Source of the DNA: a virus
Lineage: Duplodnaviria; Heunggongvirae; Uroviricota; Caudoviricetes
Strand: one strand, 5' to 3'
DNA length: 64,000 nucleotides
Virus record (IMG/VR): IMGVR_UViG_3300019867_000001
Span: 29,244-93,243 of that record
A program made the position numbers and the translations under genes. Each line of letters starts with the position of its first letter. The stretch's first letter is position 1. Shown here one piece after another: positions 7,712-25,958 of this stretch. The notes beneath the pieces were generated by a model. The model was not told the origin of the DNA. It was given only the letters and a program-made list of their open reading frames with translations, and did no database searches.

Positions 7712-7712
7712 T

Positions 7713-8526: not shown

Positions 8527-8796
8527 CAGTGTGTTAAATAGAATTCGTTAGATTCTATCGGTATTGCGCCAAGTATTAATTTGCTTGGCGCGCAACTCCT
8601 GCATGTTACCATGCAGCTCAGACTATCTCTTATAAGAATACTGTCAAGTATTCAAATCTCCATGTTTCAGACCTACTTAGGCCTTACAGGTTTCATAATC
8701 CGTTCTGGATTGTATACCTTAGTCGTTGCACCTTCAAACCTATTCCTAGGTAAGCTTGGCTCAGGATTGTCCTATAACGATAGGAGTTTCCCTGAA
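8527..8796 (-). mobile_element. group I intron-like element (family A, no ORF) in the RNAP gene
   Basis: Non-coding block between RNAP motif-B and motif-C exons. Carries the family core (plus strand): atgcagctcagactat..., tagtcgttgcaccttcaaac, cttggctcaggattgtcc. Boundaries approximate. Confidence 0.45.
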
Positions 8797-9870
8797 TTAA
8801 TGGAGTTTATTCACAGCAAAGTATTTACTGTGATTTGCATTTACAGCATAAGCAGTACGTGCCTTACCAGTATCTGCAATGCTATTAATCTTTCCATCTT
8901 TGTTTATAAGTTCTTCCCACCATGTTGGATCAGTTTTTTGTGCAATTTGAAGTATATTAGTAACCCATTTACCTTCTGCATCTTTATAATTAAGTCTTTC
9001 TTCAAATACTTGAGTAAAGTTCTGTTCTATTATCTTACCATCAAAATTCACACTTGGAACATTGACCCAATTCTTTGGCATTTTATTTGCTATACCTATT
9101 TCTAATTCAAATAGCTTTTTAATTTGAAAAGGTTCTAATTGCAACATCTTAAAACCAGTAAGTCTATCTTTAGGTGCTTCTACACCATAAAGCATTTGAG
9201 CTAAAGTACTATCAGGCTTATACCAACCCATTTGCTTTAATACTTTCTCACTTAAAACTTCATCTTTCCAACCAAGCATTTCACTTATACGTTTAGGTAA
9301 TTTATAACCAGCCTTTTTAGTACCAAGAACTTTAGTTTTAAGGAACTCGACGTAGTCAATATCACTTTCTTTAGGTTTAGCATTAATCATGAAATCTTCA
9401 GCTAGCCTACCGTGAAAACGTGTAAATTCACGTAATACAGGTACTTGAGATTCCAAGTTTTCAGACATAATCTGAGCTATTAATTGGAAGTCTTTGGGTG
9501 TTACTCGTTTCTCATAAGCACCAGACATCTTTTCAACTAAATCTAAAGTTTTGCTGTCTAGAAAGTATAACTCTTCGAGTACATCATCGCCTGGAACTTG
9601 ACCTTTATTAAATATATCTTTTACATCTTGACGTAATGCAAGTAATTCTTGATGCATTTCAGGATCCCATTTTTCGTATCGAGCAGCACGAGCAGAGATT
9701 TCTGAGAGGATTTTATCGCGGTCTTTGGAGTTTACTACAAGTACGCCTTCTTGTTTATCTAAAGCTTTTGCAAGTTTTTGTTCTACATTAAGTATTCCTG
9801 TACGTTTTCCTGCACCATATCGAAATGTTAAATAGAATTCGTTAGATTCTACTAATTTTCTACAAAGCAA
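8797..9870 (-). CDS. single-subunit RNA polymerase, exon with motif B
   Basis: KPDSTLAQMLYGVEAPKDRLTGF aligns with T7 RNAP motif B (KRSVMTLAYGSKEFGF). The ORF ends read into intron sequence on both sides. Confidence 0.55.
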   Translation of the reverse strand: MLCRKLVESNEFYLTFRYGAGKRTGILNVEQKLAKALDKQEGVLVVNSKDRDKILSEISARAARYEKWDPEMHQELLALRQDVKDIFNKGQVPGDDVLEELYFLDSKTLDLVEKMSGAYEKRVTPKDFQLIAQIMSENLESQVPVLREFTRFHGRLAEDFMINAKPKESDIDYVEFLKTKVLGTKKAGYKLPKRISEMLGWKDEVLSEKVLKQMGWYKPDSTLAQMLYGVEAPKDRLTGFKMLQLEPFQIKKLFELEIGIANKMPKNWVNVPSVNFDGKIIEQNFTQVFEERLNYKDAEGKWVTNILQIAQKTDPTWWEELINKDGKINSIADTGKARTAYAVNANHSKYFAVNKLH

Positions 9871-10643
9871 TACTCAGGCATATTAACAGATTTTATTTTA
9901 TAACGTAAAGTTTCTCTGCAAATACCTAAAGCATTTGCAGCTTCCATTGTACTGTTAAATATACCAATCGGTGTTTTTACCTGTTTTCTATTACATGAAA
10001 TAGATCCAATTCTATTACTTTGTTTAGGAGGATCTAAGTAATAATATTCATCAGGATTTTCTAAACAACGCCTTGATACTGTTTTATTTGAAATACCATG
10101 CGCTGTTGATGCTGCACCTACATATGGAAATATACCTAATGGTGTTCTAATACGTCTACTCATACCATGATTCTCTTTACTTGCTGATACCATTTTTCTT
10201 ATACTACCTAAATCTTCAAAACCTTCTGTATGTCTTCTAATAATGTCCTGAAATGTACTTGCTGGAATTTTATGTGCTTCTGCTGCATCAAGATATGTTT
10301 TAAATATACCTAAAGGGGTTTTTACAGCTTTACATAACATTCCATATTTATTCATTGCATTATTTGAAGATCTAATCTCAATTTTATTTAATATATAATT
10401 AGATTTATTAGCACGCATCATAAAAAATGCCATTGCCATTTCAGGGCTGTTATGAATTTTAAATAATAACCAATGTGCTAACAAATGTTGTCTACCTGTT
10501 AAATATATTAAATTTGATTTATCATTATTACCACCTAAAGCTTTAGGTATAATATGATGACGTTCATAACCATTAGTATTAATAGGTCTATTTACAAATC
10601 CATATTTTTGTAATAGATTATTATAGTGTAACTTATAATTCAT
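9852..10643 (-). CDS. HNH homing endonuclease with three NUMOD3-like repeats (intron-encoded)
   Basis: HNH motif ERHHIIPKALGG...NLIYLTGRQH. Three K/RTPLGIF...A(A/E)A...GI repeats. Lies inside the intron between RNAP motif-A and motif-B exons, and overlaps the downstream exon start. Confidence 0.6.
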   Translation of the reverse strand: MNYKLHYNNLLQKYGFVNRPINTNGYERHHIIPKALGGNNDKSNLIYLTGRQHLLAHWLLFKIHNSPEMAMAFFMMRANKSNYILNKIEIRSSNNAMNKYGMLCKAVKTPLGIFKTYLDAAEAHKIPASTFQDIIRRHTEGFEDLGSIRKMVSASKENHGMSRRIRTPLGIFPYVGAASTAHGISNKTVSRRCLENPDEYYYLDPPKQSNRIGSISCNRKQVKTPIGIFNSTMEAANALGICRETLRYKIKSVNMPEYCFVEN

Positions 10644-11217
10644 TTAAGTTTCCTATATTTGCTTTGTTAAAATTCTACATATTCCTATGCAGTCCAGACT
10701 ATATCATCAAGCAAAAGATAAACTTAATTTATCAATTGTTTGTCGGGCGCTTCGATAGGACTTCCTATCTACTTCCTTTCGGAATAGTCGTTGCACCTTA
10801 AAACAAACCATTGTACCATATTTCATGGTACTATAGTAAGTAATCTTGGCTCAGGATTGACCGTTCTGGTGTTCCCCTGAATTCACCCGATTTTCGATGC
10901 ATATTACTATGCAAAGCCTCTATAAGTTAAAGGTGACCATATTTTGCCGTAAATGTTCAAATCTGTTCGTTACTCAGATTCGGTTTAATAATAAACTTCT
11001 ATTAATAAACACCTGCATGTCACCATGCAGCTCAGACTATATCTTCAAACAAAAATTACTTATTTTCGAATGTCCCGCGTTTCGACTGGACTACCAGTCT
11101 ATGGGTTTCATCTTCTGTTCTAGAAGGTATACCCTAGTCGTTGAACCTTCAAACTCATTCCTGAGTAAGCTTGGCTGCTGATTGACTCGTGTGAGCGTTT
11201 CCAGCAATTAACGGGAT
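9871..11217 (-). mobile_element. group I intron-like region with two tandem family-A cores (10681-10920 and 11021-11217) plus HNH ORF
   Basis: Both cores carry cagactatatcatca / tagtcgttg(c/a)accttcaa / cttggctc(ag)gattg blocks. The 100-nt spacer between them has stops in all frames. Could be tandem introns, a twintron, or a degenerate duplicate. Confidence 0.4.
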
Positions 11218-11640
11218 TTAGGCAAGACACAAAGAATTTATCTTGCTTGCCTTACGGAGGTCTTTTTCCGTAAGGCCTAACTTAACATTTAATTCTCGAA
11301 ATCTTGGATCATTAAATGTTAATGCAGCTATCTGATCATATAGACGCTTTTTATGATCAGTAGGGATCACATTACTTAACTCTGCTAACTGTTTGTTTTT
11401 AGTAGTAAGCGCTATGATCTGCGCACCACTACTTGATGCATCTTGCTCTAAGGCTAATGCTGTTTTATATGAATTAAGCTTTTCAAGTGACTTGACAGAG
11501 TAATTACCTTCTAAATAATTATCTATTTTAGCTGTTTCTTGAGCCAAACGTAAGACTTTACCTATATCTTCGGCATCAACATTTGCAAGGAATTTAGAAT
11601 CCAATATTGCGCGTATATCATTTGGTTTACCTTTAAGCAT
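11218..11640 (-). CDS. single-subunit RNA polymerase, exon with motif A
   Basis: MLKGKPNDI... aligns with T7 LAKGKPIGK. ALEQDASSSGAQIIAL aligns with T7 motif A (LAFDGSCSGIQHFSAM). Confidence 0.55.
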   Translation of the reverse strand: MLKGKPNDIRAILDSKFLANVDAEDIGKVLRLAQETAKIDNYLEGNYSVKSLEKLNSYKTALALEQDASSSGAQIIALTTKNKQLAELSNVIPTDHKKRLYDQIAALTFNDPRFRELNVKLGLTEKDLRKASKINSLCLA

Positions 11641-12805
11641 ATGATTGCCAATATCAACTAAGTCTTTACGCCAATATTGAGCTATTTGTTGTCTTCCAGT
11701 GATAGAAAGTGAATTGTATTTTAATTCGTATGAGTCATCTAAGCCGCCTAAGAATGCCCCAATTTGATCTTGAAAATTAGCAAAACCGGGTATTCCAAGA
11801 ATTTTCGATTCTTCAGTATTTAAAAACGGTCTACATTTATGTTCAAGTATATTCGCTAAATATACTCAGGCTTATCAGGCATTTATTAATAATTCTTCCA
11901 AGATCTTCCTTGTTTTATTCCACTAATTGTACCAGAATGAACTTTAAATTTTTTTGCAATATTAGCAAGGCTAATTCCATCAAGAAGCATTTGTCTTATA
12001 ATAGGAATATCTGTTACTGTTAATTTTTTTATAATTCCAACTTTATCAAAAACAGGTCGTTTTATATGTTTCCAACTAATTCCAACACGTATTTTATAAA
12101 TAGAAGAATGTACAATATTATATATTTTTGCTATTTCAATATCTGTACAACCATCTTTAATAAGTTCTATTATATCAAGAACATCAGATTCTTTTAATAT
12201 AGATTCAGGTCTATCCTCACCTTTACAACTACAATTATTAGTAATACCATGTTTATAATTATCAATAAGACTCATCCATTCTAAATTATTATAATTATTA
12301 TTAAGTTTATTACAATCTTTATGATTAACAGTTAAACCTTCAACATACCCATCTACAAAGGCTTTTGCAACAAGTCTATGTACAGTGCGTGTATTTAATT
12401 TACTGTCAAAAAATAAACTTATCTTTAAGTAACCCCTTTCAGTAAGTGATTGACTTAAGATATAATCATATTTATTTTTAACACGTCCTAATGAACTGAT
12501 TTCATACGTTGTATCTTCTATTTGTTTCCATATTTCTTCCATTTTACACCTAAATGTTGTGCCTGATAGCACTTCTGCAATTTCGTTTCCTTATATGCAG
12601 ATCAGACTATATCATCAACCCATAAAGGTTGTCGCGCGCTTCCACTAGGCTTCTAGTGTACAGACTTCATAATCCTTTAACAGGATCGTATGTCTTAGTC
12701 GTTGCACCTTCAAGAGTATTACTACTCAAGCTTGGCTCAGTATTGTCCTTGCGAGGATATCCACTGAATTCACGCGATTTTCGATGTATATTACTATACA
12801 AAGCG
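11641..12805 (-). mobile_element. group I intron-like element (family A) carrying an HNH endonuclease gene
   Basis: Family core at 12590-12805. The T7 alignment runs continuously across the junction (…GETLIS | MLKGKP…), so about 1.17 kb must be removed. Confidence 0.5.
11886..12572 (-). CDS. HNH homing endonuclease (NUMOD4-like N-terminus, C-terminal HTH), intron-encoded
   Basis: EEIWKQIEDTTYEISSLGRVKN resembles NUMOD4. HNH core VNHKDCNKLNNNYNNLEW. C-terminal GISLANIAKKFKVHSGTI looks like a helix-turn-helix. Confidence 0.55.
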   Translation of the reverse strand: MLSGTTFRCKMEEIWKQIEDTTYEISSLGRVKNKYDYILSQSLTERGYLKISLFFDSKLNTRTVHRLVAKAFVDGYVEGLTVNHKDCNKLNNNYNNLEWMSLIDNYKHGITNNCSCKGEDRPESILKESDVLDIIELIKDGCTDIEIAKIYNIVHSSIYKIRVGISWKHIKRPVFDKVGIIKKLTVTDIPIIRQMLLDGISLANIAKKFKVHSGTISGIKQGRSWKNY

Positions 12806-13282
12806 TCAAGAAATTAACGTTTCCCCTGATTGAACACCGATAAGTCCACGTTCATAAATCCTAGCTCTATGATCCAAAAATGGATGATTACTAAAAGCAT
12901 AATTATTCTTTCTTAACCACTCCATCGCCTTAAGTCGTTCATAAGAATCTCCACGTTCAATCATAAACTCACGATAACGATTTAAGTCATTGTAGTATTG
13001 AGCTTTACCTTTATCATCTTGAAAATTAAGCAATTTACCTATAAAATCATGAAATTCAGGGTCTATTTTATACTTAGCATTTGCTGTCCAATTAAGAGCA
13101 TCAGTCATGTCTTTATCTATTAGCTTGGTAGGAAAATTCTTAAAGCTATCTGTTGATGTTAAAGGTATCTGTGTATCTCTGTTTTTATAATCAAAATAAG
13201 TTTTATAGCCTTCACGTATTTTAAGTCTATTCTTATCATCTACTACGCTTACTCTTAATCCTAATTCAATTTTTCGTTGCAA
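12806..13282 (-). CDS. single-subunit RNA polymerase, exon with T/DxxGR motif
   Basis: NNYAFSNHPFLDHRARIYERG aligns with T7 ANHKAIWFPYNMDWRGRVYA. The coding frame stays open upstream into 13283-13450. Confidence 0.55.
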   Translation of the reverse strand: MQRKIELGLRVSVVDDKNRLKIREGYKTYFDYKNRDTQIPLTSTDSFKNFPTKLIDKDMTDALNWTANAKYKIDPEFHDFIGKLLNFQDDKGKAQYYNDLNRYREFMIERGDSYERLKAMEWLRKNNYAFSNHPFLDHRARIYERGLIGVQSGETLIS

Positions 13283-13672
13283 TTTAGAATACTCTTGAAT
13301 TCGAGGATCGACAATTCTAAGATTAACTGAGAATGTGTCGTAGTACGGACCCGTTTTGTTAGATGGTCTTCGTTAAAGATCATCAAATGCTTGCCATTTA
13401 TTTCTCTATGTGTTGTGCTGGCAAGCACTTCTGCAATTTCAAAAATAAACTCATTTAATTATATGCAGACCAGACTATATCATCATCCTATTACTAGGAT
13501 GCTGCGCGCTTTGAGCAGACTTCTGCCCTATGGACTTCATCGTCTGTTCTAGACGGTATGTCCTAGTCGTTGAACCTTCGAACCTGTCCCCAGGTAAGCT
13601 TGGCTGCTGATTGTCCTGAAAGATTTTTTAACGAAAAATCTTATAGGATGTTCCAGCAATTCACGCAGTTAT
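13283..13672 (-). mobile_element. group I intron-like element (family A) with a decayed endonuclease-gene start, between MuF gene and RNAP exon
   Basis: Family core at 13451-13672. Its 3' tail (gaaattgcagaagtgct…aaataaATGgcaagcatTTGA) is homologous to the region preceding the HNH ORF at 12572, but here the ORF stops after 4 codons. The 5' family sequence extends into the last codons of the MuF ORF. Confidence 0.4.
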
Positions 13673-16600
13673 TCAATATACATTACTGTATAAGGCTTCA
13701 TTTAAAAAGTATCTTCTGCCTACTCTACTCTTCATTCGTCGTTTTTGTACACCATAAGTTTCTAATTTATAAATACCCTTGTCATCTGCAACATCCAGAA
13801 GTTTTACGCCTAGTTCAAACCATTCTTTTCGGCTACCTCTATAATTAGCCATATTATAAAGATCACGACCTAAACTAACAGCGAATTGATCTCTATCAGG
13901 CATATCAGCTAATGAAAGCCTATGGGCAAACTTTAAGTAAAATTCTGATAAATCACGGTCTGTTAGACTTAAAAAGTTTTTCTTTAGAGGCAATTTTGGA
14001 TCAATAAAAACCCTACCTAAAACTCCTCTTAACTCTCTTGCAATTTTAGGCGCAGTAGTATTTTCCCAAGTATTTCGCTTTTGTATATTCTCAAGAAAGT
14101 TATCATGTAAATCTTGTAATTGGACTGGTCCTAAAACTGGATCAATGTAATTTTCTTGCTTCAGCTTGAAAAGTAAATTAGCATCTTTGCGTATTTGTGT
14201 TTCAATGTAATCAGACACATTCATTACATCAAATTTCATTTGTCCATTTAGAACAGCTTTTAAATTAGCCCAAGGTATTTTGTTTTCACGTGCTCGTTGA
14301 AATATAATCCTTAAATTATCCGTTATAACAGCACGTTGATTAGTACCCATATGACCATCAAGGTCATCTACAAACTTAAGTATAAAGTCTTTATCTTTAG
14401 GTAGTAATACCTCTGATTCTTCTACTAGTCTTTTAGTATTCTCTAATACCTGCATATTTGGTTGGTAAATCCTTGCATCATCATACCTACCAGTAAAGGG
14501 ATTATACTTCAAATTATCTTCAGTAGGCGGTGAACTTAATACTCTAATTTTAGTATTACGTTTATTATGTAATAATGTACCCCTATAATTAGTAAGCGAA
14601 AGCATTCCATCCAACTCACCATCCTGTAGCAAATAATACTCTTTAAGTGCTTTTTGAAATTCTTTAGATTCTAAAATTTCATCAGGACGTGCTGCACCAA
14701 GTTTAAGAGTATCAAGTTTTTCTTTAGCTAATGCAAATCTACGTGTATCTCCTGGTAAAGCATAACCTGGATCTGTAAGTTTACGGAGTTCCTTAATACC
14801 TATTGAATTGCCTTCATCATTAGTAAATTTATCAAGAGTTAATTGTCCACTTCTGAATACTTCAAGTTTTTTGATATCTCCTAAATGCCTTAACTGAACT
14901 TCTGATGCTTGCCGCGTCAGCCATTCATTATAGGATTCCTTTAATGGAGACTGCCCATCATAAAATGCAATTTGCTTATCAGTTAATCCTTCGAGATTCC
15001 GTTTACGTATTTGGGCTATCCCTTCAAGTTCACCTAGTTGCTCATAGCTTTTTACAATCGGTATAGTAGAGGATCTACAATTACTACCCCAAATTATCTT
15101 ACCATTTCTTTTAGTAAGCAATGTATGCTTATCAGCTAATTCTATATCATAAACTTTGTATAGGCCATCACATTCAACTATAATAGTAGCATCCGTTAAC
15201 CTTCTATATTGACTTCTATTCCAAGCAATATGATAAACTAAATAATTACCATCAATTGTATCTCCATTTTTCTTTATAACAAAACTTGGAAGTCGTTCAT
15301 AAACACTTGCTGAATCCCCAACTTTAATTATAAGTTCACATAAATCTGCCATTAATTGTTTTGAAGTAGTAAAAAATTTTCTTACTAGATTTGAAGTATA
15401 TCCTTCAAAATCAGATTGTTTAACAGAAGTACCATCTCCTAACAAGTATGCTTCAAGAAAAACTAATAAATCACTTTTAGGTAAATTTTTAATTTCTTTT
15501 GGTATATACTTTTCAGTACATTTTCCAAATTTTAATAACCAATTATTTAAATTTTGATCAACAAAACCTAATCCAGTTTGACGATTAGATGGGTTTAATT
15601 CTTTTAATTCTTCTAACATTAATTGTTTATGTGTATACTGCGAAATACAACAATCAATGTAACCTTTATTTTTAATTGATACAGATCCATCCGATAACCA
15701 CCAAGCCATAAATTTACAAAATATAGAAACAGATGGAAATTCAAAATTATTTACAATTATTTTATCTATACTTTTGCCTATCCACTTAGATGATGCAAAC
15801 ATTCTAAAATCAACTTTAGGCGGTATATCTAAAATTGAATTATAATATTTTGGTAAATATTCTTTATAATTGCCTCTATCAACCCTCTTTTGTCCTATGA
15901 AAGGATGATCTGCAGTTACTGCGATGTCGACTGAAAATGCTTTTATAAAAATTATCTCTTCAACTTCTTTTTCAAATTTAGTTATAATTGGTTGCCAAGT
16001 TAAGTCTTCAGTTTCAGGATCTAAAGATAAACATTTTTCATTTATAATTGTATCTTTAATTAATTTAAATCCATTTTCAGTCAATACTTCTGTATCTTCC
16101 AGGTAACAGAAAAAGTGACTGGGCGGGAGATGACTTGTATCACTTATTGGGTACACAGTGCCATCTCGATGAGCACAAAGTGGCGTTGTTCTGCTATCCA
16201 ATACAGCAACATATTGCCATCCTTGTAATGCTTTTTCATTAACTTTATAAACTTCGTGATCTGTTTGAGCGTATACACTTGTAATAGCAGTAGTAACTAA
16301 GCCTTGAGATTGGTTCTTTGTTATTTTAAATATACTACCTTTACGTACATTTAAGGCTATTTCTTCTTCTGTAAGTCCTTCTGCTAATCCTTTACGTATT
16401 AACGATTCAATCCTAATCTTCTCACCTTTAGCAATACTATTCCAGCCTTGAGCTAGAGTTTGATTGCTATAAATTGGACGTGATAAAACTATATCCTCAG
16501 CTATCCTTCGAGTAGGCTTAGAAGTATGCCAAATTTTGCCTAAAGACGCATCTAAACTTTGATATGTATACGAAATTTGATCTCCAACTAAATCAAGCAA

Positions 16601-16870
16601 TGATCGTTTAGTAGTTGTATGTAAAGCATGAGTTGTTCTTGCTAATTCTGCATCTACAGCTTCTCTAAATTTAATAAAACCAGGTCCATTCATTTTAGCT
16701 TTACGTACCAAGTCTTCGATTTTAACTGCATGCCCATCTACTATTAATGATACTTTGCCTTGAACTCTTCGCTCATAAAGTCTTATCATTGCTGATCGAT
16801 CTATTGATTTATCATAAATTTCAGTATTTACATTTATAGCAGTCATACTAATCCTTAATAAAGTAATCAA
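13673..16870 (-). CDS. head morphogenesis protein (Mu F / SPP1 gp7 family) with intein and long C-terminal extension
   Basis: Exteins reconstitute the Mu-F signature ...YVAVLDSRTTPLCAHRDGTVYP...LPPSHFF|CRSS (H.NCRC-like). 1065 aa, including a 343-aa intein and about 470 aa after the MuF domain. Confidence 0.6.
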   Translation of the reverse strand: MITLLRISMTAINVNTEIYDKSIDRSAMIRLYERRVQGKVSLIVDGHAVKIEDLVRKAKMNGPGFIKFREAVDAELARTTHALHTTTKRSLLDLVGDQISYTYQSLDASLGKIWHTSKPTRRIAEDIVLSRPIYSNQTLAQGWNSIAKGEKIRIESLIRKGLAEGLTEEEIALNVRKGSIFKITKNQSQGLVTTAITSVYAQTDHEVYKVNEKALQGWQYVAVLDSRTTPLCAHRDGTVYPISDTSHLPPSHFFCYLEDTEVLTENGFKLIKDTIINEKCLSLDPETEDLTWQPIITKFEKEVEEIIFIKAFSVDIAVTADHPFIGQKRVDRGNYKEYLPKYYNSILDIPPKVDFRMFASSKWIGKSIDKIIVNNFEFPSVSIFCKFMAWWLSDGSVSIKNKGYIDCCISQYTHKQLMLEELKELNPSNRQTGLGFVDQNLNNWLLKFGKCTEKYIPKEIKNLPKSDLLVFLEAYLLGDGTSVKQSDFEGYTSNLVRKFFTTSKQLMADLCELIIKVGDSASVYERLPSFVIKKNGDTIDGNYLVYHIAWNRSQYRRLTDATIIVECDGLYKVYDIELADKHTLLTKRNGKIIWGSNCRSSTIPIVKSYEQLGELEGIAQIRKRNLEGLTDKQIAFYDGQSPLKESYNEWLTRQASEVQLRHLGDIKKLEVFRSGQLTLDKFTNDEGNSIGIKELRKLTDPGYALPGDTRRFALAKEKLDTLKLGAARPDEILESKEFQKALKEYYLLQDGELDGMLSLTNYRGTLLHNKRNTKIRVLSSPPTEDNLKYNPFTGRYDDARIYQPNMQVLENTKRLVEESEVLLPKDKDFILKFVDDLDGHMGTNQRAVITDNLRIIFQRARENKIPWANLKAVLNGQMKFDVMNVSDYIETQIRKDANLLFKLKQENYIDPVLGPVQLQDLHDNFLENIQKRNTWENTTAPKIARELRGVLGRVFIDPKLPLKKNFLSLTDRDLSEFYLKFAHRLSLADMPDRDQFAVSLGRDLYNMANYRGSRKEWFELGVKLLDVADDKGIYKLETYGVQKRRMKSRVGRRYFLNEALYSNVY
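15080..16108 (-). mobile_element. intein with LAGLIDADG homing endonuclease in the MuF protein (residues 255-597)
   Basis: N-terminal block CYLEDTEVLTENG. Two LAGLIDADG motifs (FMAWWLSDGS, LEAYLLGDGTS). C-terminal ...IIWGSN followed by extein Cys. Flanks rejoin to HFF-CRSS. Confidence 0.6.
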
Positions 16871-17185: not shown

Positions 17186-17187
17186 AA

Positions 17188-17664
17188 TTACGATTCCTTT
17201 GCAAACTCTCCATGATATTCTTTAACTGCTTCATTACGAGCATTACGAGCTTCTTCTTCAGTGTCAAACAAGCCTAAAGTGTGCCTTTGACCATCAACAG
17301 TTATTCTCGCACGATACTTACCACTAAATAAATCTACACCTTTAATACCTGTAGTATTCGTTTCAGGCATTGATCGATTTTGCATATTTTGTTCGGCAGT
17401 AGCTGGTCGAAGATTCTCAGGTGTATTATTAAGTCTATCTGTATCTTTATGATCTATACGCTCGGGGTAATCATCATTATATAACATATAGATTAAACGA
17501 TGAACTTTATATGTATGCCCTGCAAACTTTACTTGTAAATAACCTTCACTATTAAGCGTACCTACAGGTTGATTCTTTACTATATTAGGCCCATTATTTA
17601 TATTCCAAAATAACTTGCCATTTTTATAATAAAATACTTCACGGACTTGCTTATGGTTAAGCAT
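17188..17664 (-). CDS. HNH-AP2 homing endonuclease (free-standing)
   Basis: HNH core [19 protein letters not shown]2-like GIKGV...[28 protein letters not shown]. Confidence 0.6.
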
Positions 17665-19379
17665 TATTGCAATTGAGCAGGTTGTTTAGATTTCTTTTTA
17701 ACTGGATTTTCTTGTGCATCTACTGCATTCTCTAGATTTCCTTGTTGAGTCATTGCTTTAATATAACTAGGATCAGATAAATTCTTATCAACTATTCCTT
17801 GTTGCATTATAGCAGCATAATCAGCAACTTCAGGTGAAGCACCAGTAGCTAAAATAATATTATCTGTAATAATTTCTTGTTGGCCTTCTCCATCATCATA
17901 ATCTGGTTCAAGAATATCATTATGCTTCATAATAAGTATCCAAATGCTTCTTGGTATTAAGCCTTGTTGATACCATTCAGTAATTAATCTGAGCCAATCT
18001 GCACCTAGTGGAGCTGGGTTAAAATCAGCAGAAAGCATAAATTTAACATCTTTTGCTGTATATTTAGTTCCATAACGCCAGTTTAACATACATGCAATTA
18101 TACTAGCAAATTGATTACTTACTTTAATATTAAAAGTACCAAGTTGCGCTGTCTGTGCTGCATTTCGAATATCAAGTGCTACTCCACTTTGACTTACTTC
18201 TGGAGCAAGCATTCGAAGACCCATTTTAGCCATTTCTTCAAATGCTGCAGCTATACTCCTATCCATATCTTTAAGAGATTCTGTTGGTGTTTCTAATACA
18301 GTTGCAGTATCGCCTTGTTGTAAATGAAGCCATGTACCTAAACCAGCACCAACAATTTCTTTGAATTTATCATCATTCATATCAGAGCATATAACTGGTG
18401 TATATGTCGCTGCACCATAAAGTAAGTGATTACGTCTACTTATTTTATTATACAATGCTATTTCTTTATCGATTAAGGGAATTAAAATAGGCTCTACAGG
18501 TTGAACACTGCCATTAACAGGCCATGCTGGTATGTAATTGAGTCTTTCACCATTCATCATAATATTAGTGATTGTATCAACTAAAATAAAGCCTTGACCA
18601 AAATTAGTTAAAACGCCATAACCATAATTTTGTTGTATTTGACCATTTATTACTGGTATCATTGCGCTTTCATTTCTATTTTGAAATTTACGTATTTGGT
18701 AATATCCATCTACTATTTCATGTACCCATACAGTATCTAGCTGTTTAGCATGAAATTCATCTTTATCTCGTACTGATTCATAATTACGTACTATGACCAT
18801 TATTAAATCTTGGGAACCATCACCGCTAGGATCACCTAAATCCCAATTAATTACACTTTCAGCTTTCCATAATACTGGATAAGGCTTGTACATAAGTAAT
18901 TCTTGCTGAGTTAAATTTTCATTATTTCCAATATTAGGATAATCTAAATATACCCAAGCTCTGCTAGTTTGTACTTCTTCCCATAATGCTCTATCAAGAA
19001 AACTAATAAGTGGTGAACAATCTTGAGCAAATTCATTCATTATCCAATTATAAGCATCTGCAGGGGCATCTTTAGGAAGCACTAATTGAGGTTGTTTTCT
19101 AAGTAATCCACCTACTACTGTTTTGGCGTATTGGGATACTATGCCTGGTAGCTCAGCTTCTGCCTTGTAGAAGTTATACTGTAATTGTGTCATTGAAGGT
19201 GAAAAAGGAATCAATAGATTCTTAAAAGAAAACACATCTAATACAGAATCTAAATCTTTTACAAACCTTTCACCACCACAAACAGCCCTTGATTTACTCC
19301 ATAATGGTTGCATTGATTCATAAACAGTAAGTGGATCAGCTACTGTTTTACCTATACGAGTCTCATTAAAAACTGTCAT
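17664..19379 (-). CDS. portal protein
   Basis: 571 aa immediately upstream of the MuF gene, in the canonical terminase-portal-MuF order. Size typical of portals. Confidence 0.5.
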   Translation of the reverse strand: MTVFNETRIGKTVADPLTVYESMQPLWSKSRAVCGGERFVKDLDSVLDVFSFKNLLIPFSPSMTQLQYNFYKAEAELPGIVSQYAKTVVGGLLRKQPQLVLPKDAPADAYNWIMNEFAQDCSPLISFLDRALWEEVQTSRAWVYLDYPNIGNNENLTQQELLMYKPYPVLWKAESVINWDLGDPSGDGSQDLIMVIVRNYESVRDKDEFHAKQLDTVWVHEIVDGYYQIRKFQNRNESAMIPVINGQIQQNYGYGVLTNFGQGFILVDTITNIMMNGERLNYIPAWPVNGSVQPVEPILIPLIDKEIALYNKISRRNHLLYGAATYTPVICSDMNDDKFKEIVGAGLGTWLHLQQGDTATVLETPTESLKDMDRSIAAAFEEMAKMGLRMLAPEVSQSGVALDIRNAAQTAQLGTFNIKVSNQFASIIACMLNWRYGTKYTAKDVKFMLSADFNPAPLGADWLRLITEWYQQGLIPRSIWILIMKHNDILEPDYDDGEGQQEIITDNIILATGASPEVADYAAIMQQGIVDKNLSDPSYIKAMTQQGNLENAVDAQENPVKKKSKQPAQLQ

Positions 19380-19469
19380 CTCAGACTCCTAAGATATACG
19401 AATCTTCTACAGTACCATTAGCTATATATTGTACAATCTTCCAATTGGAAGGTGTATAAGGAATAGCCA

Positions 19470-19718
19470 TTAAATTTGACCTTTTAAGTGTTTACCAAAA
19501 TCTTTAGGTGTACCACTAAATACAGAACCAGTAATACTATTTCTTGCTTCAATCTGATCGCCAGTTGTAGGTAAAACATTCCAATTAGCAGGTACTGAAT
19601 CAGCATACTTATTAGTAGTAGGTATGGTCTTCAGTCTACTGGCATCAAATCCTGAAGGAGTATCTGTAACTGGAGTTTTAGGTATATTAATTGGTCCTCT
19701 TGCTGTATCTAAACTCAT
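19470..19718 (-). CDS. hypothetical protein
   Basis: 82-aa ORF. Confidence 0.25.
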   Translation of the reverse strand: MSLDTARGPINIPKTPVTDTPSGFDASRLKTIPTTNKYADSVPANWNVLPTTGDQIEARNSITGSVFSGTPKDFGKHLKGQI

Positions 19719-19730
19719 TTTAATTTCCTT

Positions 19731-22331
19731 TTATAATTGACCAACATATTGATCTAATACGATTACATCCAAAAATGTCCCACTTGGTAAATATAAACGT
19801 TCAAGACGCGTTGTAATAGGCAAAGAAGTAAGTGTAATAGTTTGTATATTATTTATTGTATACGGCGCTTGATTAAATACCCAATTAGTATTATTTCCAC
19901 CATTTGTTGCACCGTAAATAACGCTACCTGCATAAAAAGTATTAGCAGGACTTGCTATGCTATATGAAACATTAGCATGATTGCCAAAATTCAGCTTACC
20001 AGTTCCAGATTTAACTAAAGTATGTGTGGCATTAGTAATCGAACTGATCTTAATTTCTAGACTAAACAGAGCATATCCGTTCCGCGTCCACACTTCGCCG
20101 GTCGTTGAGGATGTGAAGGTGTTGCCGGATACCCAGTCGTTAGGATTGAAATCTACAGCGAGCGTACCGTTTATGCCGTTGTAAATTTGGGCACGATATA
20201 CATCACCAGCACACGGCTGAGTTTGCCCAATGCTAATCTGCGCAACGCTGTCAAAGAAACCAGAACCAACGGATACTGTGACTGTTGCTCCTAATTGAAC
20301 CCAAGTAACGCCATCTTCTGTCGGGCAAGTATAAAATTTCGTGTCACCAGATGATACCTGCCTTGTAACTCGCACCCAATGTAGAGAACCGGCTATAAAC
20401 CCATGCACTACGGTAGAAATCGCACCTACCCCAGAAACTGCGGTGCCAGTCGGATAAATAATAAAGTTTAATTGTCCACTATTCACTCTAAATAAGTAAG
20501 TACGATGACTACCATTATTATCATCTTTGCCAATTAAACATTGTGTGATCGTTGGAGAAGCCCAATTATTAAGCGCAACCTGTACTCTAATATCAATGTC
20601 GCCAAGAATTGCAGAGGTCACACTGTTTGGGGTAGACAGCTGGTTATAGACAAGTACTGGGTCAGTTCGTACAAACTTCACTGCCGCCGGATTGTAAAGA
20701 GGTACGTTCACACTCGCCACGGTCATAGTCGTGCTCGCCGTTAAGCGGATATTTTTGGGGCCGTTGTCGGTTCGGAACTCGTTAAAAGTGTTGCTGCCGG
20801 TGAAGTCGAAGGAGCCTGAGCCTGCGCCTGAGAGCCAGATATTGTTGTAGGTCTTGCCGCCGCCTGCGAAGGTCTTGATGGCTGATGTGGCATCGGTTAG
20901 CTTAGTCGTTCCGCTGTCAGTCACTGTTACACCCGCTGCGGTACTGAGCACTGTTCCACTGCCTGTGATCGCCCTTAGTCCAGTGCGGATAATCGTGCTT
21001 GCATTGGACGAGGTGAAGCTCGCCATCGTGGTATTGAATCCGGCATCGTTCTTAGTGCCATTGGTGACTGTGAATGCGCCATTCGTAATAAAAGCGTCAG
21101 CGAGAGTAAGCGTTCCTCCCGGCATATTCTCTATGACTGGCTGCGTGAATGTGTGGCCTGCACTTGTTAGCGTGACTGAACTGCGGGCACCAAACGTGAG
21201 TGCAGCAGTACCTGAGAGTACACCCGCATTCGTCAAATTCAATGAGCCGTAGAGTGTATTGGCAACAGTTGTATTCAGGATTGGCGAATTGCCTGCCCCA
21301 GTGAAGTTGATGTTTTTTCCTAGTCTCGGCATATCCATCGTGACCGTTCTGCCAGCGATGAAGGCGTTCGGAACATCTACATCATCCTGTGGCAGCGGTA
21401 CGCGAGAAGTCCAGCCATGCGTGCTCCAAGCGAATGATGCGGTTCCTGTAGCAGTCTGCTTGACTGAAGCAGCGAATGTGATATTAGAGTTTCCGCCACA
21501 ATCTCCTAAGTTGCCTGATGTAGCGACCCACGTCCCGCCTGCACCGGCAGCGGTGATGTCCATAAAGTCACAGTTGGTGAGGATTGGGGGATTAGTGCAA
21601 GTGATGGTACGTGGCGTGCCTACTGATAAGACATACGCCGTGGCTGCTTGTACCAATACGGGCATAGTAGGGCTGGAGCCAGAAATTGTTAGAAAATGCG
21701 TGACAGCAATATCATTGTTAAACGCATTTATACAATTTGCAACATTAGTACCAGGAAACACAAGGTCATAGAAGCTGAACGCGCCACCGATGATCGTGCC
21801 GGCGGGGCGATCCAAAGTCATCTTCTTTCCGTTCGGATCAAAACTGGCCGTAGCGATAAGGCTAAAAACGGAGGGATTCAACGTCCAGTCACCCATTAAC
21901 TTGTATGTGGCAGCCCCGTTTAAGTTGACGGTACTACCAAAAGTAAAATCCAATACCTCGTTAGGTGTAATCGTTTGAATGCCAGAAGGTGCAAGGAATT
22001 GCAAAGTTCCGTTGTATTTGCCTGAAGCACCTACATCCATCCCTGCTAACAACTTCAATGAGCCATAACAGTTAATTGATCCACTACCCACCAGCGTAAT
22101 CGTCCCACCTGCGCCATCCCCCGGCTTGGCGTCGAACATCAGGTCACGGCAATTGAACGTCACATCTACGGTAACTGTGTAGCCGGCGTTACTGGTATTG
22201 CTCAGACCATCAAAGTGTGCATCAAGAACAGACGTAGGCAAGTTGCCAGCGCCTGGCGCACCGCCTGACGTAGCCGCCCAATGATTCGCGGCGTCACTGG
22301 TATTGCCCGTACCGTTGACCCAGAAGCTCAT
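19731..22331 (-). CDS. large Gly/Thr/Ser/Asn-rich protein, putative tail fibre/receptor-binding protein (GC-rich island)
   Basis: 866 aa, beta-rich and low in charged residues, with a C-terminal lectin/LamG-like region. Local GC is clearly higher than the flanks. Confidence 0.4.
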   Translation of the reverse strand: MSFWVNGTGNTSDAANHWAATSGGAPGAGNLPTSVLDAHFDGLSNTSNAGYTVTVDVTFNCRDLMFDAKPGDGAGGTITLVGSGSINCYGSLKLLAGMDVGASGKYNGTLQFLAPSGIQTITPNEVLDFTFGSTVNLNGAATYKLMGDWTLNPSVFSLIATASFDPNGKKMTLDRPAGTIIGGAFSFYDLVFPGTNVANCINAFNNDIAVTHFLTISGSSPTMPVLVQAATAYVLSVGTPRTITCTNPPILTNCDFMDITAAGAGGTWVATSGNLGDCGGNSNITFAASVKQTATGTASFAWSTHGWTSRVPLPQDDVDVPNAFIAGRTVTMDMPRLGKNINFTGAGNSPILNTTVANTLYGSLNLTNAGVLSGTAALTFGARSSVTLTSAGHTFTQPVIENMPGGTLTLADAFITNGAFTVTNGTKNDAGFNTTMASFTSSNASTIIRTGLRAITGSGTVLSTAAGVTVTDSGTTKLTDATSAIKTFAGGGKTYNNIWLSGAGSGSFDFTGSNTFNEFRTDNGPKNIRLTASTTMTVASVNVPLYNPAAVKFVRTDPVLVYNQLSTPNSVTSAILGDIDIRVQVALNNWASPTITQCLIGKDDNNGSHRTYLFRVNSGQLNFIIYPTGTAVSGVGAISTVVHGFIAGSLHWVRVTRQVSSGDTKFYTCPTEDGVTWVQLGATVTVSVGSGFFDSVAQISIGQTQPCAGDVYRAQIYNGINGTLAVDFNPNDWVSGNTFTSSTTGEVWTRNGYALFSLEIKISSITNATHTLVKSGTGKLNFGNHANVSYSIASPANTFYAGSVIYGATNGGNNTNWVFNQAPYTINNIQTITLTSLPITTRLERLYLPSGTFLDVIVLDQYVGQL

Positions 22332-22576
22332 GGCTTCACCACTTGAAGCTCGTCAGGTGTTAGCTCGACCACTGGTACAGGCGGAGCTGTAATGAGCGCT
22401 ATCCAATTATCATGGCGACGGTGCATTTCCTCCTCTAGCATTACAGGCGTCTGGTTCGGCCATTCCTCAATACTGAAGTGTAATGCATCACGCCACTCCA
22501 TTGGTCCGTTCTTATCCATTGTATAATCTACAATGACACGAGTAGATCCTATAAGTATTTCTTTATCTATAATCAT
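22328..22576 (-). CDS. hypothetical protein (within GC-rich island)
   Basis: 82-aa ORF. Confidence 0.25.
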   Translation of the reverse strand: MIIDKEILIGSTRVIVDYTMDKNGPMEWRDALHFSIEEWPNQTPVMLEEEMHRRHDNWIALITAPPVPVVELTPDELQVVKP

Positions 22577-22971
22577 GATCCGCTAAAAATCCCATTAATT
22601 TGATCAGCATCAATAACAAAACTTTCACTTATTGGAATTGTAATCGAGTACCCATAATCATACCAACTTAGTAATGGCTTATTAGTCTGAGTATCATTAT
22701 AAATTACCATATATCGAAATGGTCCAATTGTTACACTTGCTGCTACAAATGTAGCATCAGAACCTAAAATAAATCGATTATTAGAGACAGTAAGCGGGCC
22801 AATCAATAGTCCTCCCGCAGTGTAATTAGCATTTGTAGTAATTTCTATTATATCAGCATAAACAGTATTACTTGCACTTGGTAAAGTATTACTTAACATT
22901 ACCTTATAGGTATCTGTTAATCTATGTTTACCTGAAAACAAATCATTAATAATACAATTAAAATTCGGCAT
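22573..22971 (-). CDS. hypothetical protein
   Basis: 132-aa ORF. Confidence 0.3.
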   Translation of the reverse strand: MPNFNCIINDLFSGKHRLTDTYKVMLSNTLPSASNTVYADIIEITTNANYTAGGLLIGPLTVSNNRFILGSDATFVAASVTIGPFRYMVIYNDTQTNKPLLSWYDYGYSITIPISESFVIDADQINGIFSGS

Positions 22972-22983
22972 TAAAATAAATTC

Positions 22984-23328
22984 CTATATCATTAGCTGAA
23001 ATATAGCTTGTACCCAATAAGGACATTGCTCTCGTGCGAAGATAACTATACCAATATCTCCAAGTACTTTATATTCTGCCATACTTGAATCAATAGTAAG
23101 TACATCATTTACAAGTAATCGCGGGCCTCTTGTGATATATGGTGTAAGTGCTGCAGCAAATTTTAAACCACCAGAAGGTATACCAAGTACTGATCCAAAA
23201 TTAATCCGTTTAGCTACTACATATGCAAGTGTATCTAAATCTTCAACTGTTAAATCATCACATTCTATTTTCCAATCAAGCATAATACCGGAATGGGATA
23301 TTAAGTCTTTTCTTATAAACATAATCAT
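22984..23328 (-). CDS. hypothetical protein
   Basis: 114-aa ORF. Confidence 0.3.
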   Translation of the reverse strand: MIMFIRKDLISHSGIMLDWKIECDDLTVEDLDTLAYVVAKRINFGSVLGIPSGGLKFAAALTPYITRGPRLLVNDVLTIDSSMAEYKVLGDIGIVIFAREQCPYWVQAIFQLMI

Positions 23329-23657
23329 TTCCTACGTTCATCAAGCGATTGCTGTATTCTACCAACTTGATTTATAATACTATTATGCTCTGCTTGAAAA
23401 CCACTCAATTGAGCTTTAAGTGCGCCATCTGATTCAACACTGTGTAATTGAATTAATGCCATTTGTTTATCACGTTCTTCTATTTTAGTTTCCAGAGCTG
23501 TAAAACGTATTTTTTGCGCTTGTTGCTCTGCAGCAACCTCAATTACTTTTTCTTTCATATTACCAATACCTGCTATCCATGCAACTAGTATTCCAAGCAA
23601 GATAGTAATTGCGCTACCTATAAAAGACTTTAAAGCAGAATTAACTATTTCCTTCAT
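23325..23657 (-). CDS. membrane-anchored coiled-coil protein
   Basis: N-terminal TM segment (ITILLGILVAWIAGIG) followed by a coiled coil. Confidence 0.3.
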   Translation of the reverse strand: MKEIVNSALKSFIGSAITILLGILVAWIAGIGNMKEKVIEVAAEQQAQKIRFTALETKIEERDKQMALIQLHSVESDGALKAQLSGFQAEHNSIINQVGRIQQSLDERRK

Positions 23658-23800
23658 TAGATTTTACCCCAATGATAGAGCCATGCTACTGTACATGCAA
23701 ATATTATAAGTATTATTAATTCCATCTTTTCTTTAGTGGATAATTTCATAAATGCAAACCATTATAGCAATAACCGCACATACAATAAGGAAAATTCTCA

Positions 23801-24355
23801 TCAGAATCCAAATCCTCTTACAGCTGGAATACTACTAGATCTAATTGAAAAAAGATACTCTATGGAATAGCGAACACCATCTGAGAAATGTTCTACACCT
23901 TCCTTTTTATCTATAGTTGCTGAATCAGGGTTGTTATCAAGCCAAGAAGTACGTTCTATAGACATAATAGTTCCAGTACAACGTGGATGAAAAAACAAGT
24001 TAATCTCGCCTGCTGCTGTCTTAAGCATACGATTTACAGCATTCACTGAATCCACAATAGGTGGCGATTTATTATGTGAAAATACTCTAAAACCATAAGA
24101 TCCAAGTATATTAAAATCTGTTCTACCCATTACAGCTGAAGTTTTTCTGCTCTTCCCTGTAGGATCGGGATATAATGAGATCTTACAAGGCTTTACTCGA
24201 GTCTTTTCATACTTAGGCCAGTAACGTCCTATAATAGCACGAGCTAACATATCAGTATCAGGGAATCCTTGTAATTCATCTAAATACTGAACTTGTCCAC
24301 CTCTAACTGCAAATACTGAAGAGCATTGGAGACCTACGTTAAACCAGTTGTTCAT
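23801..24355 (-). CDS. terminase large subunit, exon 2 (nuclease domain)
   Basis: 184 aa with RNase-H-like terminase nuclease features (…HFSDGVRY…). Downstream of the ATPase exon. Confidence 0.5.
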   Translation of the reverse strand: MNNWFNVGLQCSSVFAVRGGQVQYLDELQGFPDTDMLARAIIGRYWPKYEKTRVKPCKISLYPDPTGKSRKTSAVMGRTDFNILGSYGFRVFSHNKSPPIVDSVNAVNRMLKTAAGEINLFFHPRCTGTIMSIERTSWLDNNPDSATIDKKEGVEHFSDGVRYSIEYLFSIRSSSIPAVRGFGF

Positions 24356-25082
24356 TAAAGCTCGTTAAACTTTAACCGAGTCTTGAAGATACCCAATTGC
24401 ACTTTTAAGACTATTTATATTGTCTTTAAAAGCACCTAAACCAGTATTACAAAAACCACAAAGAACACCACGAATTTCGCCTGTAAGATGATCATGATCA
24501 ATTACAGCTTCTTCACTAATATTCTTTCCATGGCCTTGTTTAAGTTTAAAATTTGTTATATTGCCACAAATCGCACATAGATTATTTTGCTTTTGAAGAA
24601 AAGAATCACGTTCTTCTAAAGATAAACTATGTTTACGTTTGTAATACCATTTTGATTGTCGTTCTTTACCACATTCTTTACAATAAGTTTGTAATTTATC
24701 TGCTCTATACGCATTATTACTAAACTCAGTAAATGTTTTTTCTTTACGACAAACATAACAAATTTTAAAACCTTCTCTTTGATTGAAATTTAATTTATTT
24801 CTTGTTAATGGAATATTTCCATTTTCAGTCAAATGTACTGGTAATTTAAACACTATATCTCCTAACTCTGCTATACATTACTGTATAGAGCAGACTATAT
24901 TATCAAAAGTCTTTAGTGGAGTAGCTTTTAAATTAAAGCCACATCCCAACCTTTGTTCGGCGCTTCCACTGGACTTCCAGTGTACTCCTTTACAGGATAG
25001 TCGTTGCACCTTCAAACTTTAAATTAAGCATACTTTGTATGCTAAACTCTTAGTAAGCTTGGCTCAGGATTGACCACGAGGG
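24356..25082 (-). mobile_element. group I intron-like element (family A) with EndoVII-type HEG, in terminase large subunit gene
   Basis: Family core 24880-25082 plus ORF 24365..24853. The family sequence overlaps the last codons of the exon-1 ORF, so the true 5' splice site is slightly upstream of 25083. Confidence 0.45.
24365..24853 (-). CDS. endonuclease VII-family homing endonuclease (intron-encoded)
   Basis: Cys/His zinc clusters typical of T4 endoVII-like nucleases (CAICG...DHDHLTGEIRGVLCGFCN). Confidence 0.5.
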   Translation of the reverse strand: MFKLPVHLTENGNIPLTRNKLNFNQREGFKICYVCRKEKTFTEFSNNAYRADKLQTYCKECGKERQSKWYYKRKHSLSLEERDSFLQKQNNLCAICGNITNFKLKQGHGKNISEEAVIDHDHLTGEIRGVLCGFCNTGLGAFKDNINSLKSAIGYLQDSVKV

Positions 25083-25958
25083 TTATCCCCTGAGTTCACC
25101 GAATTTTATATCGACCAATAAATCGATACCAATATGAATATCCTCAATGATATCCCCTTCATCATTCATTTTAAACCATTCTAAATCATTTCTAATATGT
25201 AGTTTTCGGTCAAAACAATAAAATACATTATTTCCTGATTCTTGGAATGATGCCAAATACTCCCTCGCGAATCGAATGGGGTCTATGTTATGACGAATAC
25301 GCTCTATTTCAACAGGATCTAAGAGTGGACTTGTTGTATAGTCAAGTTGGTAACTTTTCCAAGTGACGTCAGTATCCTGAAATGTAAACATTTCATAAAG
25401 ATAATCATAACCTTTAGGAGTACTAATAGTAAGTGACCTACCGCTTCGAGGACTTCCGTATTGCTTAGCCTGTTTTGGGCTCCAACGAGTTACTATGGTT
25501 GGCTGAATTATTGATTCCCAAGCTTCCTTTGCTCCTGGAGTTTTAGCCCAATCACGTATTTCATCATTAACGACATAATAAGCTCCACTTCCACGAAGTC
25601 TCTCTATTGCTTCAAAAGAAATTAACTTGAGTTCCACATTCTTAGGAAACCATAACCTGCCTGCATCACGAGAGTACTTCAAGCAATATCCTGATAAACC
25701 TAATTCATAGATAAGTAAAGGAAAGTATATTTCAGAAACCTGCGTATATGTTGGTGCAATAATTAATACATTTTTATTAGGCACAGACTCATCAAGTTGC
25801 ATGAGCTCAAATATAGCATTTGTTGCACAAGTGGCAGCTAAGAAAGATTTGCCCCAGCCTCTCGACGTCACTGCGACTATATTTTGTACTATATCCTTTA
25901 AGAATATTTCTGAGAATATCTCACTCTGCTTTGGGTGAAGTGTGATCGTTGAATTCAT
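25083..25958 (-). CDS. terminase large subunit, exon 1 (ATPase domain)
   Basis: Walker A VTSRGWGKS, Walker B-like VVNDE. Confidence 0.55.
   Translation of the reverse strand: MNSTITLHPKQSEIFSEIFLKDIVQNIVAVTSRGWGKSFLAATCATNAIFELMQLDESVPNKNVLIIAPTYTQVSEIYFPLLIYELGLSGYCLKYSRDAGRLWFPKNVELKLISFEAIERLRGSGAYYVVNDEIRDWAKTPGAKEAWESIIQPTIVTRWSPKQAKQYGSPRSGRSLTISTPKGYDYLYEMFTFQDTDVTWKSYQLDYTTSPLLDPVEIERIRHNIDPIRFAREYLASFQESGNNVFYCFDRKLHIRNDLEWFKMNDEGDIIEDIHIGIDLLVDIKFGELRG

Follow-up and report, generated by a model that had tools for sequence, protein, structure and literature searches.

A family of group I introns in the MuF-RNA polymerase and large terminase genes of a Caudoviricetes virus

Just over 100 phage introns have been described so far according to a 2025 survey (PMC11878797), in which the title of a cited paper refers to three introns in one gene, orf142 of phage Twort. 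In roseophage DSS3_VP1, the large terminase (TerL) gene is interrupted by a self-splicing intron that carries an Endonuclease VII gene (Rihtman et al. 2021, PMC8323127); that paper mentions no RNA polymerase. In phage PhiPA3, an endonuclease encoded by an intron in the gene for a virion RNA polymerase subunit gives a competitive advantage over PhiKZ (review PMC12908238). We analyzed a 64,000-nucleotide (nt) stretch of a Caudoviricetes virus (IMG/VR record IMGVR_UViG_3300019867_000001, positions 29,244 to 93,243; hereafter the window), in which a preliminary description made from the letters had picked out six related structured elements as group I intron cores. Matches to the Rfam group I intron model, covariation, and the restoration of open reading frames (ORFs) all agree with that description. 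We judge, with a probability of roughly 0.93, that all six copies (I1 to I6) are genuine group I introns and diverged members of one family. I1 to I5 interrupt a gene for a MuF-RNA polymerase fusion protein, and I6 interrupts the TerL gene.

All six copies matched the Rfam model RF00028 on the minus strand. Scores were 66.9-97.8 bits, with a gathering score of 50 bits. The matches were:

13716-13451, minus strand, I1, 71.7 bits
12826-12583, minus strand, I2, 66.9 bits
11323-11013, minus strand, I3, 87.0 bits
10939-10675, minus strand, I4, 97.8 bits
8836-8599, minus strand, I5, 77.2 bits
25159-24871, minus strand, I6, 68.1 bits

A scan of the whole window at the gathering threshold returned five of these. 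I6 was lost to speed filters in that scan and was found in a more permissive scan of 19.5 kb (7500-27000). The six intervals first described coincide with the RF00028 matches, but they cover only the cores, and the introns extend further. A profile hidden Markov model built from the six cores (nhmmer, E<=10) found exactly six family members in the window and no further or intergenic copies.

The copies share a conserved secondary structure. In an alignment of the six (MAFFT), the sequence blocks that had been noticed as shared proved to be the classical P, Q, R, and S elements, with small variations. We scored a structure of 42 pairs (P3, P4, P5, P6, the P7 pseudoknot, P9, and a hairpin that the preliminary description had singled out as covarying) by counting pairs and comparing the counts with slid and shuffled controls. 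Standard pairs made up 94% of cells. Changes on both sides of a pair were present in 28/42 pairs, versus 2-5 when the 3' partners were slid by 1-3 columns, and none of 500 shuffles attained the observed values of pairing and covariation. In the singled-out hairpin (alignment columns 216-221/226-231), 6/6 pairs had changed on both sides and 100% of cells were paired. Pairing of P3, P4, P6, P7, and P9 was kept in all six cores. The pattern held when 84 unique members of the family, drawn from IMG/VR as well as the window, were counted, with 94.3% of cells paired and double changes in 33/42 pairs (8-14 when slid). P7 was invariant within the window and had rare double changes across these 84 members.

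Extra hairpins (P7.1/P7.2) between P7 and the 3' strand of P3 (P3') define subgroup IA of the group I introns. An insert of 29-53 nt separates the 5' strand of P7 from P3' in three Rfam alignments of the copies, and the singled-out hairpin is the second hairpin of this insert. The six introns are subgroup IA-like.

Elements that are multi-copy, similar in length, and located within 17 kb might also be DNA-level repeats, MITE-like (miniature inverted-repeat transposable element) or produced by recombination, rather than RNA elements. We find this hardly credible. Over model positions, identity between any two copies is only 60-72%, yet their pairing is kept by compensatory changes. Each lies in one of two essential genes at conserved codons, and removal of the copies restores the ORFs exactly (below). 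Copies outside genes elsewhere in the genome, which the preliminary description had regarded as the mark of such repeats, were absent from the window. A pattern of two conserved blocks found 92 loci in IMG/VR (145 profile hits). Among 185,579 bacterial and archaeal species genomes, in contrast, it matched only seven contigs, all from metagenome-assembled genomes (MAGs), and one of these agrees with an IMG/VR contig in match position and sample number.

I1 to I5 were found in a region where T7-type polymerase motifs (QDASSSGAQ, RKASK...YGAG, NANHS...NDA, and SVHDAF) are scattered over separate minus-strand ORFs. The gene and its introns are arranged as follows:

8146..16846, minus strand, MuF-RNA polymerase gene, 8701 nt (4635 coding, 3037 in five introns, 1029 in an intein)
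16846-13706, 13351-12816, 11833-11240, 10947-10930, 9820-8827, and 8526-8146, minus strand, polymerase exons
13352..13705, minus strand, I1, 354 nt, no endonuclease gene, between RRYF and GPYY, in-frame stop ending 33 nt into the intron
11834..12815, minus strand, I2, 982 nt, within the F codon of SGETF, which is followed by RPFL
10948..11239, minus strand, I3, 292 nt, no endonuclease gene, in motif B after 2 nt of the codon following RKASK
9821..10929, minus strand, I4, 1109 nt, after 2 nt of the L codon of MVTL, which is followed by YGAG
8527..8826, minus strand, I5, 300 nt, no endonuclease gene, between NANHS and NDAV

The spliced ORF has one terminal stop and encodes 1544 amino acids after removal of the intein. 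More than 100 uninterrupted homologues of ~1540 amino acids, with Pfam MuF and RNA_pol domains, matched it at 60-66% identity and 100% coverage, and there were zero insertions or deletions at the five junctions in comparison with 12 aligned uninterrupted homologues. On the spliced product, Phage_Mu_F scored 52 bits and RNA_pol scored 41.7 bits over residues 998-1106, a region that spans the I3 and I4 junctions. The RNA_pol score on the unspliced exon was 20.1 bits. Four of the five introns are at recognizable polymerase motifs, two of them at motif B, and the I5 site is the T7 'HSQDG' motif. No solved structure for the polymerase was found in the PDB by sequence or with a 13-sequence profile, so the evidence for a polymerase is its match to Pfam PF00940 and the motifs, which were read by eye. 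Judged by these domains and motifs, the protein is an N-terminal MuF domain (SPP1 gp7-like head protein) fused to a very divergent T7-like single-subunit RNA polymerase.

Most of the >100 homologues of this protein in metagenomes are annotated as head morphogenesis proteins. The gene is just downstream of an ORF with a DUF4055 domain (17664-19379) that we take to be the portal gene. The fusion to MuF and the position beside a putative portal gene suggest that the polymerase is probably packaged in the capsid and injected.

We located the intron ends from the reading frame and from features that recur among the introns. At all seven introns of the window, including one in a ribonucleotide reductase (RNR) gene described below (I7), the exon ends in U and the intron ends in G, and this G falls at the position that the reading frame requires. 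In each of I1 to I6, the 5'-most G of a P1 guide of 4-7 bp (read by eye, unscored) is opposite the exon-final U, as in CACAGU/GCUGUG of I5. The 5' splice site of I3 is based on the pairing GCAAGAU/GUCUUGC, with its terminal U.G pair, and on collinearity with homologues. An in-frame stop ends 10-39 nt into each of the seven introns, upstream of P3. Early in-frame stops are known from the introns of phage T4, and ribosomes must stay out of the core. A plausible P10 could be seen by eye in I3, where UUUGU just 5' of the guide pairs with the GCAAA that opens the next exon.

The six family introns also share a 3'-terminal module in which a covarying hairpin has (U)UAACGA as its loop and AACA-N4-5-G comes next, at the splice site. 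The modules are at these positions:

13352-13385, minus strand, 3'-terminal module of I1
11834-11868, minus strand, 3'-terminal module of I2
10948-10982, minus strand, 3'-terminal module of I3
9821-9853, minus strand, 3'-terminal module of I4
8527-8559, minus strand, 3'-terminal module of I5
24344-24376, minus strand, 3'-terminal module of I6

A strict scan for the hairpin motif on both strands of the 64 kb gave five matches, all of them intron 3' ends, and none elsewhere in the window; the I1 hairpin is present with one mismatch. Endonuclease ORFs, where present, are between P9 and this hairpin. The module lies outside the Rfam model, and candidate roles are a peripheral P9.x contact or selection of the 3' splice site.

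Three other candidate splice sites were considered and rejected. A 3' site for I1 at 13275 keeps the frame open but leaves a gap of 25 residues relative to homologues, and 13352 was used instead. Similarly, a 3' site for I2 at 11831 is open but leaves a gap of one residue, and 11834 was used. The P1 that Rfam assigns to I3, at 11323, pairs exon sequence (11240-11323) and is ~80 nt too far upstream; it would remove the conserved LGLTEKDLRKASK.

I3 and I4 are separated by a micro-exon:

10930..10947, minus strand, 18-nt exon gcaaaatatggtcacctt, encoding (M)QNMVT(L) of motif B

The preliminary description had reported a gap of 100 nt with stops in all frames at this place. The gap is mostly the 3' tail of I3 and P1/P2 of I4, and only 18 nt of it is exon. 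In-frame splicing of I3 and I4 gives RKASKMQNMVTLYGAG, which is gapless relative to the homologue consensus RKAAKAQNMVTFYGAG. The micro-exon thereby completes RKASK-MQNMVTL-YGAG, which corresponds to motif B in an alignment with T7 RNA polymerase (R627, K631, Y639).

Three possibilities had been raised for this pair, and our results favor tandem introns over a twintron or a dead copy. The proximity of the two Rfam cores (only ~75-100 nt apart), with stops in all frames between them, is compatible with a twintron or with one member being dead and non-splicing. However, I3 and I4 each have a full-length RF00028 match (87 and 97.8 bits) and each have their own P1 U.G pair and terminal G. They lie side by side, rather than one nested in the other as in a twintron. 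The intervening 18 nt code for the conserved QNMVT(L), which aligns gaplessly with homologues, and joining only the outer splice sites would delete six conserved residues of motif B. Equivalent tandem arrangements recur in diverged contigs. One (L011) has the same 18-nt exon, another (L069) has an exon of 27 nt, a third (L025) carries a series of three introns and a ~12-nt exon, and two more (L001 and L078) have tandem pairs. Because I3 and I4 are complete and separate and the arrangement recurs in other contigs, we reject the twintron and dead-copy readings as very improbable.

I6 is the family member outside the polymerase gene:

24344..25121, minus strand, I6, 778 nt, in the TerL gene between HIGID and FNVG (TerL exons 25958-25122 and 24343-23801)

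It interrupts TerL at the start of the nuclease domain. In roseophage DSS3_PM1 TerL is uninterrupted, and its alignment with the spliced protein runs through the junction without a break.

We also found a seventh group I intron, which, like the host genes, the micro-exon, and the intein of the polymerase gene, was not in the preliminary description:

50873..51130, minus strand, I7, 258 nt, in a class II RNR gene between GYNP and CAEQ, before the Cys codon of the NPC motif

I7 is divergent and compact, without P7.1/P7.2, and both the Rfam scan of 37 kb and the six-core family profile had missed it. Its RF00028 score of 41.1 bits is below the gathering score of 50 (E=3e-9 in a search of 441 nt). 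The peptide spanning its junction matches other phage RNRs in one piece, with 64% identity and 100% coverage.

The endonuclease cargo varies among the copies, as had been described. By Pfam, two introns have an HNH gene, one has an EndoVII gene, and three have none. The genes are:

11886..12572 (likely ATG at 12542), minus strand, I2 endonuclease, after P9 (NUMOD4 34.1, HNH_3 33, and HTH_7 26.9 bits)
9852..10643, minus strand, I4 endonuclease, with an N-terminal HNH and I-TevI-type DNA-binding repeats (NUMOD1 24.1 bits, above cutoff)
24365..24853, minus strand, I6 endonuclease (Endonuclease_7, 66.8 bits), with its stop codon in the loop of the 3'-terminal hairpin

The I4 protein contains ERHHIIPKALGGNNDKSNL, which resembles an HNH motif. 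I1 keeps a stretch resembling a ribosome-binding site and an ORF of 4 codons at the place where I2, its closest relative in the window, starts its endonuclease gene. This stub suggests that an endonuclease gene was deleted from I1.

The polymerase gene also contains an element outside the intron family:

15080..16108, minus strand, LAGLIDADG intein, 343 amino acids, in the MuF motif between PPSHFF and C

The insert (CYLED...IIWGSN) starts with Cys, ends with Asn, and is followed by Cys. Its removal restores PPxHxxCRS, collinear with homologues. The Pfam matches of the intein are weak and below cutoff (LAGLIDADG_3 20.4 bits, PT-HINT 18.3 bits). Two other inteins are present in the window:

51104-53293, minus strand, intein in the RNR (LAGLIDADG_3 and Intein_splicing matches)
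53817-55874, minus strand, intein in a primase-helicase (Hom_end_hint, 77.6 bits)

At least five free-standing endonuclease-like ORFs of the HNH_3 plus AP2 type were also seen, the first two identified with Pfam and the other three by eye from their translations:

17188-17664, minus strand, immediately upstream of the polymerase gene
25921-26742, minus strand, immediately upstream of the terminase gene
57638-58153, minus strand
61034-61516, minus strand
62757-63275, minus strand

The introns could be real and yet lie in a polymerase pseudogene that is decaying, with some copies no longer able to splice, in a genome that is defective or mis-assembled. I5 has the most deviant J8/7 and P9 of the six, and three introns have lost their endonuclease genes. 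All six polymerase exons are, however, open and in frame with the conserved catalytic motifs intact, and every core keeps the pairings listed above. The same multi-intron state is found in many independent contigs. Endonuclease-gene loss is itself a normal stage of the intron life cycle and leaves splicing unimpaired. We regard decay as very improbable.

Several points do weigh against reading the copies as functional mobile introns. Splicing is deduced from sequence and structure rather than from RNA. P10 is convincing in I3 alone, and that of I4 is weak (~3 bp by eye). The subgroup IA assignment is based on the two extra P7-P3' hairpins rather than on a formal classifier. The HNH and HNH_5 scores of the I4 endonuclease (19.9 and 20.4 bits) are just under the Pfam cutoffs, and endonuclease activity, target sites, and co-conversion are predictions. 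Finally, an exact-protein look-up and an exact 40-mer scan of IMG/VR gave no match to the window, and the genome could be defective.

Each of the six introns has closer relatives (74-90% identical) in other viral contigs than in the window. I4 is 90% identical to an intron at the same site in locus L043, and L025, L045, and L087 hold relatives of I5 (77-78% identical) whose sites coincide with that of I5 or differ by no more than ~3 codons. With closer relatives elsewhere than in the window, and with the closest ones of I4 and I5 at or next to the same site of the same gene, the copies are lineages that have long been tied to their sites and did not arise by recent duplication in this genome. 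The MuF-polymerase gene was carried by 25 of the 92 IMG/VR loci, whose proteins are only ~41-71% identical. Intron positions recur in it at ~883, 1015, and 1043, in a cluster at 1078-1088, and at 1415-1419, and the intein site recurs as well.

Family introns are not confined to this polymerase. At least ten further IMG/VR loci have canonical T7-like polymerase genes interrupted at the equivalent position of motif B, after RRKVVKR (L047, L050, L054, L056, L029, L083, L058, L039, and L018 are among them). These introns are only 75-80% identical to those of the MuF-polymerase genes, no closer than the family average, and thus give no evidence for recent transfer across lineages, an explanation that we considered and rejected. 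One family intron is in a family A DNA polymerase gene at the GRFS motif (L074), and other loci carry unidentified genes. A megablast comparison of 9 kb with 50,697 phage records gave only an 84-bp match to an intron core, in Vibrio phage 1.161.O; the match is a family member with a GIY-YIG gene, located in a primase/helicase gene. By these sequence comparisons, the introns of the window belong to old lineages, each specific to its site, within an intron family that is widespread among aquatic phages.

From the established chemistry of group I introns, we predict that the six introns self-splice in a guanosine-dependent reaction. Each intron RNA would fold into the pseudoknotted P3-P7 core and bind guanosine. 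The ribozyme would cut the RNA 3' of the U that ends the exon and takes part in the P1 U.G pair, and would join the exons at the terminal G, and the early in-frame stop would halt ribosomes before they reach the core. In co-infecting relatives, alleles that lack the intron would be cut by the HNH and EndoVII enzymes, and repair would copy the intron in. Copies without an ORF may persist by vertical descent, by co-conversion with a neighbor, or through the free-standing HNH-AP2 endonucleases. I3, which is 18 nt from the endonuclease-bearing I4, is a candidate for co-conversion.

The elements might in addition serve the phage, an idea that is compatible with their being mobile introns. The endonucleases could act as weapons on the polymerase and terminase genes of relatives, and the splicing load could gate or delay production of the polymerase. 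The PhiPA3 precedent cited above, the free-standing endonuclease-like ORFs, and the conservation of insertion hot spots across many contigs all point this way. On the other side, most homologues (>100) are entirely without the introns, and sequence cannot tell benefit from parasitism. We consider a benefit to the phage rather unlikely. A further proposal, tentative and also rather unlikely, is that motif B could be a landing pad by which the family passes between very different phage lineages, among them the MuF-fused polymerases of Naomviridae-like phages and the canonical T7-like polymerases of other aquatic phages. On this proposal, introns would have evolved stable stacks there (up to three introns, with micro-exons of 12-27 nt), introns without endonuclease genes would be carried along by the endonuclease of a neighbor, and the endonucleases would also be used as weapons on the polymerase genes of co-infecting relatives.

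The splice map has practical consequences. Gene callers would split the 8.7-kb polymerase gene into many unrelated fragments, and the map recovers the 1544-amino-acid fusion. To be expressed, this one essential gene would have to go through RNA splicing five times and protein splicing once. The window has an extreme natural load of selfish elements for 64 kb, with seven introns of group I, three inteins, and at least five free-standing genes that look like endonucleases. The 18-nt micro-exon and its counterparts of 12-27 nt offer a natural system for studying the packing limits of ribozymes, exon skipping, and hitch-hiking on endonucleases.

Some further features of the window were seen:

6941-7711, minus strand, ORF just downstream of the polymerase gene, CBASS inhibitor Acb3 family (217.6 bits), an anti-defence gene
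32684-32749, minus strand, weak tRNA-like match (RF00005, 24.2 bits, below the gathering score of 29, E=0.75)
36068-37108, minus strand, adenylosuccinate-synthetase-like (PurA/PurZ-like) gene
39316-39984, minus strand, HD-domain protein

Some phage homologues of the PurA/PurZ-like protein are annotated as 2-aminooxy adenylosuccinate synthetase. Together with the HD-domain protein and the kinship to the dU-DNA Naomviridae (below), this gene suggests that the phage genome may contain modified bases. Such a genome would matter for cutting by the endonucleases.

The nearest cultured relatives of this virus are the Naomviridae roseophages DSS3_VP1 and DSS3_PM1, with TerL 51-53% and the MuF-polymerase 33% identical; the polymerase of EBPR siphovirus 1 is 58% identical. 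In the nearest published relatives, the polymerase homologue is labelled "head protein" or "minor head protein-like protein". The DSS3_VP1 homologue is found by tblastn in two pieces that cover 89% of the query, within one annotated coding sequence. We found no paper on introns in the MuF-polymerase family in open-access full text and bioRxiv. The DSS3_VP1 terminase intron and I6 share the TerL host gene, the intron family (including the 3' hairpin and the AACA...G tail), and the endonuclease family. In contrast to I6, which lies between D and FNVG, the DSS3_VP1 intron is inserted 12 nt downstream, between FNVG and I.

The introns also resemble those of well-studied phages. They share the RF00028 class, the P/Q/R/S core, and the P7-P3' hairpins with the introns of T4 td, nrdB, and sunY, of the SPO1 and Bastille DNA polymerase genes, and of Twort orf142 and nrdE. 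Location at conserved codons of essential genes, optional HNH-type cargo, and the early in-frame stop are likewise common to these subgroup IA introns. They differ in that the interrupted gene here encodes a single-subunit RNA polymerase fused to MuF instead of a protein of DNA metabolism, and that the endonuclease ORFs here are between P9 and a conserved terminal hairpin whose loop is UAACGA. The five introns of this one gene outnumber the three of Twort orf142, and we claim no record. In PhiPA3, as at this locus, an RNA polymerase gene of a phage holds a group I intron that encodes an endonuclease; there, however, the enzyme is the multisubunit polymerase of a jumbo phage with a single intron, whereas here the polymerase has a single subunit and its gene holds an intein as well as five introns. 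Group I introns that stand in tandem and show exon skipping (Twort orf142, and engineered introns, PMC10136302) resemble I3 and I4 in that the introns are close and the outer sites can in principle be joined. The exon here is, in contrast, only 18 nt and encodes a catalytic motif, and skipping it would be in frame and remove six residues. These findings leave unchanged what is known of how group I introns work. The elements of this locus are ordinary in kind, being group I introns and homing endonucleases at conserved sites of essential phage genes, and unusual in degree.

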